A DNA stretch of 20,697 nucleotides from Orycteropus afer. Taxonomy: Eukaryota. Positions 7,448 through 9,562 of this stretch are shown here, piece by piece. The position numbers were made by a program, and so were the translations under genes. The notes under the pieces are model-generated. The model was not told the DNA's origin, did not search any database, and saw only the letters and a list, made by a program, of their open reading frames with translations. The stretch spans positions 1,175,648 through 1,196,344 of the forward strand of contig NW_006922148.1 of the NCBI RefSeq assembly GCF_000298275.1, read 5' to 3'. Positions within the stretch are counted from its first letter, which is position 1; each line of letters opens with the position of its first letter.

Positions 7448-8087
7448 TGTTCTGGTTACCTAGTGCCACTCTGACGGGAAACATACCTCAAATGAGATGG
7501 CCTTAACAAACAGGAGATTATTCTTACAATTTGGAGGCTTTAAGTCCAAGTTCAAAGTGCCAGGCTCTAGGGGATGGATGAAAGCCCCTCAACCTTGGGG
7601 TCCAGCTCTGTCTCCTGCTCCCGGCCCACTGGAGCTAGAAGCATTTCTTCCCTCAGACAGCTGCTGGCTGCTGAGGCTGAGAGCCCCAAGGTTGACAAGT
7701 AAAAAGGCACAGTCCCCATGTTACCAAACCACACAGCAGGCCATTAACTTAAGTCCATTTTAAGTCCCAAGGTTGGCATAGCATAGCAGGCCGCTGAGCA
7801 ACGACACAGCTACATGCAGGGTCCAAGCGTGCCATAGGCTAGAGACCATTCTCAGAGCTTCTCCTTATATACAGGAAGCAGACCACATACCCAAAGGCAG
7901 CTATTCAGCTGCTCCCAGTAGATTCCACCATGGAGTTGACTACCAGTCTCATCATGGGGAATACTAAATCCAGCTGCCCAGCCCCTCAACCAGGCCTAGC
8001 CAAGTTGACATACAAACATAACCATCACAGTTCTATCCCTTGTCAACTTGGCATCTGTACAAATCTTCAATGGGTGGTATCTGTACA
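7448..8087 (-). mobile_element. LTR (full ~640 bp, minus orientation, acting as 3' LTR of a compact element)
   Basis: It begins with TGTTCTGG (minus-strand end …CCAGAACA). Three homologous copies lie at 8789-9096, 14966-15560 and 17063-17621. TATA-like TATATAAGGAG occurs on the minus strand at ~7862-7872. The minus-strand 5' terminus is TGTACA… at ~8061/8087. Confidence 0.5.
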
Positions 8088-8788
8088 GGTCTCCTCCACT
8101 GGGTGGCTCCATTCCCCTACTTTCTGAATAGTGACCTCACCCTCTTGGCCTAGAAATGGCCCTATTCCTCTCCCTCTTGGGCATGGCAGCCCCACCCCCT
8201 CATTCTTGGGCTGCGGCTGTGGCTCCATCCCACTGGCTCACATGAACGAGCAGTCCCACACTCCAGAACCAAGTTGGTGAAGGCCTGGCTCTTTGAAACC
8301 TAGGGGGCTGTGGTCATTCCACCCCCAAAGGCCATTGATCCTACCCTTAAGGCTGAAGCAGCTCTGCTTCTGTTTCCTTGGTCTCTCCGCTTCTGCCGAT
8401 CAGTGCCCGAGGGCAACCCACTGCACTGAAAAACTGTGCCCAAAAAGCACTCGGCTTGTTTTGCTCCATGGGCTGGCCAACCTGCTACTCCATTTCAAGC
8501 CGATCTTTTCTACTGAAAAGAAGGCAACCCACTCCATCGGAAAGCCGTCTACCGAATGGCACCCGGCTTTCTCCTCCATAGGCTGCTAAGGCTGTCACTG
8601 TCTCATGCCGGTTCTCTCGGCTCTGCTTCTGCCGTCTCTCATACTGGTCTCTTGCTGTTTGTCCTGCCATCTGTCATACTGTATGCCGGGGTCTCTGTGC
8701 CAGGATCTTGGGTCAAGGATGCACTCCACTCCTGTTTCTACATTTTATGTATTTGTCAGAGCAGCACCCCACTCCTGGAACCAAATTC
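8088..8788 (-). mobile_element. Internal region of a compact LTR element (PPT-like purine run at ~8088-8106 on minus strand; PBS-like at 8764-8783; CpG-retaining 8380-8660)
   Basis: It is flanked by two same-orientation LTR copies. Minus strand 8088-8106 = ccacccagtggaggagacc immediately upstream of the LTR 5' end. No ORF longer than 100 aa has retroviral motifs. Confidence 0.4.
8764..8783 (-). other. Primer-binding-site-like motif complementary to a tRNA-Leu(CAG)-type 3' end
   Basis: The minus strand immediately after the LTR end reads …CCAGAACA gaatt TGGTTCCAGGAGTGGGGTGC. Its plus-strand complement gcaCCCCACTCCTGgaACCA matches the recalled tRNA-Leu 3' end …CCCACTCCTGACACCA in 10 contiguous nt plus the terminal ACCA. 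tRNA-Leu priming is the defining feature of ERV-L-group elements. Confidence 0.4.
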
Positions 8789-9096
8789 TGTTCTGGTTAC
8801 CTAGTGCCACTCTGACAGGAAGCATACCACAAGTGGGATGGCCTTGACAAACAGAAGTTTATTCTTACAATTTGGAGGCTTTAAGTTCAAGTTCAAAGTG
8901 CCAGGCTCTAGGGGCTGGGTGAAAGCCTCTCAACCTTAGGGTCCAGCTCTGCCTCCTGCTCCCAGCCCACTGGAGCTAGAAGCATTTCTTCACTCAGACA
9001 GCCACTGGCTGCTGAGGCTGAGAAGCCCCAGGGTTGAGAAGTAAAAAGGCACCGTCCCAATGTTACCAAACCACACGGCAGGCCATTAACTTAACC
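8789..9096 (-). mobile_element. LTR (5' LTR of the compact element; U3-side truncated, ~308 bp retained)
   Basis: About 90% identical to 7448-7760. An AATAAA on the minus strand (tttatt 8858-8863) lies ~65 bp from the LTR 3' end. The copy ends where L1 ORF2 sequence resumes (~9097). Confidence 0.5.
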
Positions 9097-9562
9097 ATCA
9101 CACCTGGTATAACCCCACTTGGTCATAATGTATATTTTTTTCATACATTGTTGGAGTCTGTTGGCTAGGATTTGTTGAAGATTTTTGTGTCTGTGTTCAT
9201 GAGGGATACTGGTCTGTAGTTTTCCTTTTGAGTTTTTGCCTGGTTTTGGTGTGAAGGGTATGCTTGCTTCATAAAATGAATTTGGGAGGGTTCCATCCTT
9301 TTCTTTGTTCTGGAATAGTTTGAGTAGGTTTTGTGTGATATCTTCTCTGAATGTTTGGTAGAATTTTCCAGTGAAACCGTCTGGGCCAGGACGTTTGTTT
9401 ATTGATAATTTTTTTTATGACCTGTTCAGTTTCTTCTGTTATGGGTTTGTTCAAATTTTCTACCTCAGTCTGTGTTAGTTTAGGTAAGTAGTATGTTTCT
9501 AGAAATCTGTCCATTTCTTCTAGATTTTCAAATTTATTGGAGTATAGTTCTTCATTGTATCC
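9097..9562 (-). mobile_element. L1 ORF2 segment (continuation of the interrupted minus-strand L1)
   Basis: The reverse complement of 9097-9140 reads …IHYDQVGLYQV (L1: IHHDQVGFIPGMQGW), the same ORF2 position where the 7447 side ends. The minus ORF 9269-9565 reads NLEEMDRFLETYYLPKLTQTEVENLNKPIT.EE.E.VIKK… (L1 ORF2 segment following the endonuclease). Confidence 0.65.

Follow-up and report, generated by a model that had tools for sequence, protein, structure and literature searches.

Among the long terminal repeat (LTR) retrotransposons of class III, the MaLRs form a very large group of non-autonomous, non-coding elements of ~2-2.5 kb, which retain only traces of retroviral homology, have LTRs like those of ERV-L and are thought to be mobilised by ERV-L elements (PMC3915180, PMC6466679, PMC5131818). 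MT elements measure about 2 kb and ORR1 elements 2.5 kb, and ERV-L itself was named for its leucine-tRNA primer-binding site (PBS) (PMC3915180). Here, we describe an element on the minus strand of a 20,697-nt stretch of the Orycteropus afer genome (assembly GCF_000298275.1, contig NW_006922148.1; hereafter the window, to which all coordinates refer). We read it, with considerable confidence, as a single, decayed copy of an LTR retrotransposon of class III (ERV-L/MaLR type), non-autonomous and inserted in the second open reading frame (ORF2) of an older L1. Elements of this kind are known and the finding is not new biology; the family to which it belongs is almost certainly represented in repeat libraries already.

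Like the MaLRs (MT, ORR1, MLT1, MST, THE1; ERVL-MaLR), the element is non-coding, ~2 kb in length and flanked by LTRs of a few hundred bp with TG…CA termini, has class III affinity, and ends its internal region with a sequence that is common to two other MaLR-looking elements. It differs from them in a rather long LTR (582 bp) and a rather short internal region (759 bp), the centre of which has no detectable relative here. The leucine-tRNA PBS is shared with ERV-L (HERV-L, MuERV-L/MERVL), the presumed source of the mobilising proteins; ERV-L, in contrast, is ~6.5 kb long and carries gag, pro, pol and dUTPase, whereas the element studied here has no coding sequence. The same logic of retained LTRs, PBS and polypurine tract (PPT), a non-coding interior and mobilisation in trans is met with in the non-autonomous mouse elements ETn/MusD and VL30 (classes II and I), which differ in their ERV class, primer tRNAs and target-site duplication (TSD) lengths and bear no sequence relationship to it. 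Plant TRIM and LARD elements similarly combine a miniature LTR–PBS–short interior–PPT–LTR layout with parasitism on autonomous elements, but they are Ty1/Ty3-dependent and unrelated in sequence, and the LTRs of TRIMs are much shorter.

The first-pass annotation of the window had recognized two LTRs of the same family and orientation, which pairwise alignment bore out: the direct repeats at 7448-7752 and 8789-9094 were 92.5% identical over 305 aligned positions (16 transitions, 7 transversions and 1 gap), yielding a Kimura two-parameter distance of 0.080, or 0.066 when changes in CpG context were left out. Both LTRs start with TGTGATGG and end with CCAGAACA, and thus have TG…CA termini. Relatives of the LTR were sought in the window by nhmmer, and the internal/LTR junction was additionally scanned against metagenome and prokaryote-genome collections, where it was found in one metagenome contig (OJNM01017682.1, here L001) and in none of the prokaryote genomes. 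The parts of the element are as follows.

9102-8789, minus strand: 5′ LTR, 314 bp, with an internal deletion in U3 and the terminal TGTGATGG kept at 9095-9102.
8788-8030, minus strand: internal region, 759 bp in all, non-coding.
8030-8066, minus strand: conserved 3′ end of the internal region (…GAAGATTTGTACAGATGCCAAGTTGACAAGGGATAGAAC), homologous to 17584-17621 of the window and to 1291-1328 of L001.
8030-8041, minus strand: PPT-like run AAGGGATAGAAC adjoining the 3′ LTR, its position being kept as AAGGGGTGGAC at 17584-17594 and in L001.
8029-7448, minus strand: 3′ LTR, 582 bp and apparently full length, TGTGATGGTTATG…GGTAACCAGAACA, with TG…CA termini.

The 3′ LTR had at first been taken to span 7448-8087, starting with TGTACA next to a purine run, AGTGGAGGAGACC. 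It does appear to be full length, and both motifs exist in the sequence, but they belong to the internal region, 58 bp in from the LTR; the inner boundary of the LTR is at 8029 and its length is 582 rather than 640 bp. A start of the LTR, with its PPT, at 8087 was rejected because four results place this start at 8029. The plus-strand end of the 5′ LTR, CCATCACA (9095-9102), matches 8022-8029 and directly adjoins the flanking L1. A solo LTR on the minus strand at 14966-15550, 77% identical to the 3′ LTR (nhmmer E = 1e-94), aligns end to end with 7448-8029 and no further, and is preceded by L1 sequence. The start TGTGATGG is common to the 5′ LTR, the 3′ LTR, an LTR at 17583 and the LTR of L001. 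Finally, the 37 nt upstream of 8029 are kept before the LTRs at 17583 and in L001 but not before the solo LTR, and thus represent the conserved 3′ end of an internal region.

The homology of this internal/LTR junction to the relatives in the window and in L001 was recovered by nhmmer at E = 4e-8, and in all three independent elements the conserved end of the internal region closes with a purine run next to the LTR; the run AAGGGATAGAAC is accordingly placed where a primer for plus-strand synthesis would be expected. The relative in the window is a more distant MaLR-like fragment (17139-17735, minus strand), made up of an internal 3′ end at 17584-17735 and an LTR starting with TGTGATCG at 17583. 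It has the junction GCCAAGTTGACAAGGG…ACTGTGAT in common with the studied element and aligns with L001 over ~270 bp (E = 1e-13). Within 20.7 kb, the LTR therefore has two relatives, the solo LTR and this more distant one. As to L001, its positions 1-1554 consist of AT-rich, mammal-like repeat DNA in which an LTR starting at 1326 follows an internal region of MaLR type; the contig probably derives from host DNA that entered a metagenome. A 24-nt block kept in both LTRs of the element was found in neither the metagenome nor the prokaryote-genome collection by exact-pattern scans.

The upstream LTR is followed by a PBS, the components of which are listed below.

8784-8788, minus strand: spacer GAATT between U5 and the PBS, 5 nt, read directly.
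8766-8783, minus strand: PBS TGGTTCCAGGAGTGGGGT, 18 nt, with the plus-strand sequence ACCCCACTCCTGGAACCA.

On the minus strand, the LTR ends in …CCAGAACA and is followed by GAATT and then by TGGTTCCAGGAGTGGGGTGC, exactly as the first-pass annotation had it. The plus strand of the PBS agrees with the 3′ end of human tRNA-Leu-TAA-1-1, ACCCCACTCCTGGTACCA, at 17/18 positions, and the similarity ends precisely at the 18-nt limit. This human tRNA terminates in …GGTTCGAACCCCACTCCTGGTACCA (PMC10359600), its terminal 18-mer being also catalogued as tRF-3009a, whereas human tRNA-Leu(CAG), which terminates in …ATCCCACTCCTGACACCA (PMC13439101), agrees at only 15/18 positions. Human tRNAs served as the reference because ARAGORN found no tRNA gene in the window. 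The proposal of a leucine tRNA thus held, but the isoacceptor favoured by the comparison is Leu(UAA) and not Leu(CAG); provided that the host tRNA has the human sequence, the predicted primer is tRNA-Leu(UAA). A similarity to tRNA ends no better than chance had been named beforehand as a result that would speak against a PBS. With up to 3 mismatches allowed, the Leu(UAA) 18-mer matched the PBS and nothing else in the window, and gave 0 matches in 100 dinucleotide-preserving shuffles.

The insertion site was delineated from the two flanks.

7443-7447: downstream copy of the TSD, CCTGG on the plus strand and CCAGG on the minus strand, abutting the LTR end …CCAGAACA.
9103-9107: upstream copy of the TSD, CCTGG on the plus strand, identical to 7443-7447.
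6910-7442, minus strand: host L1 ORF2 (reverse-transcriptase domain) downstream of the insertion, starting with …IQG*YNIRKTINVIHY.
9108-9396, minus strand: host L1 ORF2 upstream of the insertion, ending with …IHYDQVG(V/L)IPG.

The TSD is an unambiguous 5 bp. The hexamer ACCTGG that had been noted in both flanks is present on both sides, but the right-hand one lies at 9102-9107 and not at 9104-9109, and its first A is the last base of the LTR. Duplications of 6 bp and of 13-18 bp were therefore both rejected, the sixth base being the terminal A of the LTR, and the 7 extra bp of the right flank, initially suspected to be L1-derived, turned out to be the retained LTR terminus. Removal of one CCAGG restores the reading frame of L1 ORF2 (ATA CCA GGT ATT CAA GGA, encoding I P G I Q G). 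The reconstructed empty site, …GGGTTATACCAGGTATTCAAGG… with a single CCAGG, translates in a single frame (frame 0) as S G V I P G I Q G * Y N I R K T I N V I H Y, with no stitching of frames needed at the junction itself. Once their frames are stitched, the L1 flanks can be aligned with human LINE-1 ORF2p (PDB 8c8j, 8uw3 and others) through the junction at E ~1e-64, as …IHHDQVGFIPG / MQGWFNIRKSINVI… over the insertion. This bears out the initial observation of an L1 ORF2 that breaks off after …GFIPG and resumes with MQGW…, and into which the element was inserted. In raw frames, Pfam returned only a sub-threshold RVT_1 match for these flanks, owing to frameshifts, and the window contains no uninterrupted paralogous copy of the L1 site.

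The locus therefore displays paired TG…CA LTRs, a short TSD, a PBS after the 5′ LTR and a purine tract before the 3′ LTR, as is diagnostic of LTR retrotransposons. Duplications of 5 bp are typical of class III elements, and the combination of such a TSD with the corrected tRNA-Leu(UAA) primer places the element with class III. Of the two hallmarks of ERV-L, the leucine-tRNA PBS is present while a class III pol (reverse transcriptase/integrase) with dUTPase is absent; having no coding sequence, the element is a mere dependent of the ERV-L group rather than an ERV-L provirus itself. The reading as one non-autonomous element of that group, which the first-pass annotation had already proposed, gains from the PBS, the single TSD and the missing coding capacity alike. 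An exceptional compactness, in contrast, did not survive the reconstruction. With a length of 582+759+582 = 1,923 bp, the element, non-autonomous as are the MaLRs and close to their 2-2.5 kb, is of ordinary MaLR size.

The absence of coding capacity is documented by several searches. The internal region contains 7-12 stops per sense frame, and its longest sense open reading frame (ORF) is 61 aa. Pfam returned nothing at E<=1 for the three sense frames, no gag/pol trace was seen in any frame of the region, and its longest ORF overall (98 aa, antisense) had no relatives in a large protein collection. The element is read as non-autonomous because its internal region lacks both coding capacity and protein-family signal. 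At the gathering threshold, Rfam gave no match anywhere in the window; when the element was searched at E<=5, only mir-326 (E = 2.8) and snoZ6 (E = 4.4) were returned, both at the level of chance. The predicted RNA structure of the PBS/leader portion (8380-8788) was no more stable than that of shuffled sequences (z = -0.06). Compared by nhmmer with the rest of the window, the internal region had no match beyond its last ~37 nt, and self-BLAST detected no significant tandem units in it, short internal duplications included. Two lesser repeat patterns were seen by other means: a 26-bp-spaced repeat, TGG(C/T)ATCTGTACA…, near the PPT end (8049-8092), and weak periodicities of ~111 bp (repeat families D7 and D15) and ~236 bp in the CpG-dense part of the interior (8385-8634).

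An element with such an interior could also be the one-off derivative of an autonomous ERV-L provirus that lost gag-pro-pol by internal deletion during or after integration. We hold this to be unlikely, although only one copy of the internal region is at hand, the matches to it in the window are limited to the ~37 nt just mentioned, and the copy is demonstrably prone to deletion, 269 bp being gone from its 5′ LTR. An internal deletion of a provirus would not readily account for the lack of any gag/pol trace, for a reconstructed length of ~1.9 kb that is the usual size of a MaLR (PMC3915180), or for an internal 3′ end that is common to two other elements whose upstream interior also looks non-coding.

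The deletion in the 5′ LTR and the signals affected by it can be followed with the help of the other copies.

7863-7871, minus strand: putative TATA box TATATAAGG in the U3 of the 3′ LTR, within a GTATATAAGGAGAAGCTCTG block that is kept in the 77%-identical solo LTR.
8858-8863, minus strand: putative poly(A) signal AATAAA of the 5′ LTR, with the same sequence at the aligned site of the solo LTR.
7517-7522, minus strand: mutated poly(A) signal AATAAT of the 3′ LTR, where the 5′ LTR and the solo LTR have AATAAA.

The right-hand LTR had been described as spanning 8789-9096 and lacking the U3 side; in fact it runs to 9102, has an internal deletion in U3 and keeps the terminal 8 nt of the family. 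Its first 11 nt (TGTGATGGTTA) are followed by a jump to the equivalent of 7752, such that the 269 bp equivalent to 7753-8021 are missing, and the junction falls at a 3-nt TAA microhomology (9092-9094). Because the segment is present in the 3′ LTR and in the solo LTR, the gap represents a loss from the 5′ LTR after integration. Judging from their position and conservation, the TATA box probably acted as promoter and AATAAA as poly(A) signal. The deletion took the conserved GTATATAAGGAGAAGCTCTG block, TATA box included, out of the 5′ LTR, and the copy, having lost most of this U3, is thus promoter-dead. The solo LTR starts with a variant, TGTGGTAG…, ends in …AAAACA and keeps both the TATA and AATAAA motifs.

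The sole mildly unexplained feature of the element is a CpG-dense stretch in its leader.

8380-8660, minus strand: CpG-dense part of the leader, 281 bp with 12 CpGs, a GC content of 0.54 and an observed/expected (o/e) CpG ratio of 0.60.

The first-pass annotation had counted 11 CpGs in ~265 bp here and had suggested youth or germline hypomethylation as their cause. The density is real and its o/e ratio is the highest in the whole window: the rest of the element, with an o/e ratio of 0.11, predicts 2.25 CpGs for this stretch (Poisson P = 4e-6). Neither youth nor hypomethylation is required to explain it, though either may have contributed. Decay of CpGs has been substantial, since each of the 4/4 sites with a CpG in one LTR has lost it in the other. 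With a per-copy divergence of ~0.03-0.04 and a roughly ten-fold faster decay of CpGs, about half of them would be expected to survive, and the stretch may have entered the L1 with an o/e ratio close to 1, a plausible value for an active retroelement's leader. The second-highest CpG o/e ratio of the window (0.35-0.45) was recorded in the region of the MaLR-like fragment at 17139-17735.

Two further readings of this stretch may be considered. It would be quite improbable, in our estimate, for 8380-8660 to be a germline-unmethylated, exapted promoter or regulator resembling a CpG island, or else a captured host 5′ exon of an undescribed, afrotherian-specific, short MaLR-like family. Still more improbable is a chimera, in which the CpG-dense centre is a host transcript acquired by template switching during LTR-mediated retroposition. 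CpG-dense leaders are common in young retroelements, the centre shows no ORF or protein-family signal and gave an empty protein search, and neither a poly(A) remnant nor a junction signature was seen on reading the sequence. These points argue against an origin by capture, with which the CpG-island-like o/e ratio of 0.60, the lack of relation to the other MaLR-like internal sequences in this analysis and the fact that the mechanism is documented in animals (PMC5131818) would agree. A captured host transcript is thus possible in principle but has no positive support. Least credible of all is that the unit consists of one ~1.35 kb LTR with a partial tandem copy, or of two independent solo LTRs 759 bp apart, as the shorter right-hand copy might suggest: the solo LTR at 14966-15550 matches the 582 bp of 7448-8029 only and is flanked by L1 rather than by the 759 bp, so that the ~700 bp between the LTRs are not part of a longer LTR as the first-pass annotation had allowed for, a PBS follows exactly after one LTR while a conserved PPT region stands exactly before the other, and a single 5-bp TSD surrounds the whole unit with no L1 sequence between the LTRs.

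Some observations nonetheless weigh against a non-autonomous class III element of the MaLR type, or limit how precisely it can be named. The PBS carries one mismatch, and its 5-nt spacer is unusually long. No second copy of the internal region came to light in the window, in the metagenome and prokaryote scans or in the protein search, and a dedicated short family and a one-off deletion derivative are therefore indistinguishable on this count. As to the TSD, published lengths are 4-6 bp for proviruses in general (PMC11359688), and a literature search for class-specific lengths found nothing. Assignment to a named MaLR family would draw, indirectly, on junction homology, as opposed to a comparison with Dfam or Repbase. 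In this respect, the LTR start TGTGATGGTTA…TGTCAACTTGG and the block …GACTT..AGCCTCCA…AATAAA… at the LTR end are, we presume, typical of MLT1/MST-type LTRs, and we likewise take the LTR of L001 to be MLT1-like; a literature search for the MLT1-like motif found nothing.

On balance, we favour a non-autonomous class III element, and the history proposed for it follows established retroviral biology. At integration, it would have measured ~1.92 kb and consisted of a 582-bp LTR, a 759-bp non-coding interior and a second 582-bp LTR. Transcription would have begun downstream of the TATA box in U3 and yielded an RNA with its end after the AATAAA of the 3′ LTR, which would have been packaged and reverse transcribed in trans by the Gag/Pol proteins of an autonomous ERV-L relative, with tRNA-Leu(UAA) at the PBS priming the minus strand and the purine run adjoining the 3′ LTR priming the plus strand. 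The integrase would then have cut the reverse-transcriptase part of an L1 ORF2 already in place, with a stagger of 5 bp that gave rise to the CCAGG duplication. After integration, the LTRs diverged by ~8%, and the 269-bp segment of the 5′ LTR flanked by microhomology was later deleted from U3 together with the TATA box. According to the neutral rate that is adopted, the age of the insertion may be put at roughly 15-40 million years; T = K/2µ yields ~18 million years at 2.2e-9 substitutions per site per year, and with slower rates, as large afrotherians are expected to have, the age would be greater.

Other insertions of the window involve L1 as well. The upstream flank of the solo LTR at 14966-15550, …TPMFIAA*LTLANRWNQPKC, matches residues 1194-1213 of human L1 ORF2p (E = 4.5e-4, L being substituted for the stop in the query). 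This LTR, which has no clear TSD, thus lies within an L1 ORF2 too, albeit that of another L1 copy. The L1 that hosts the studied element carries in addition, ~480 bp from it, a tRNA-related short interspersed element (SINE) at 9585-9967 on the minus strand, which contains …GGCTGGTGGTTCAAACCCACCAG… and an (AAC)n tail, read as (TGT)6 at 9765-9783. This SINE, which resembles an AfroSINE, occurs as a 202-bp head-to-tail duplication with 99% matches.

The locus as a whole is a textbook case of nested retrotransposition, with an LTR element in an L1 and a SINE in the same L1, and has little import beyond annotation. Owing to its exact boundaries, 5-bp TSD and reconstructable empty site, the insertion could nevertheless serve as a presence/absence marker in phylogenetic work, while the LTR divergence of 0.08 may be used as a dating point and the element itself as the seed for an internal consensus of its family.

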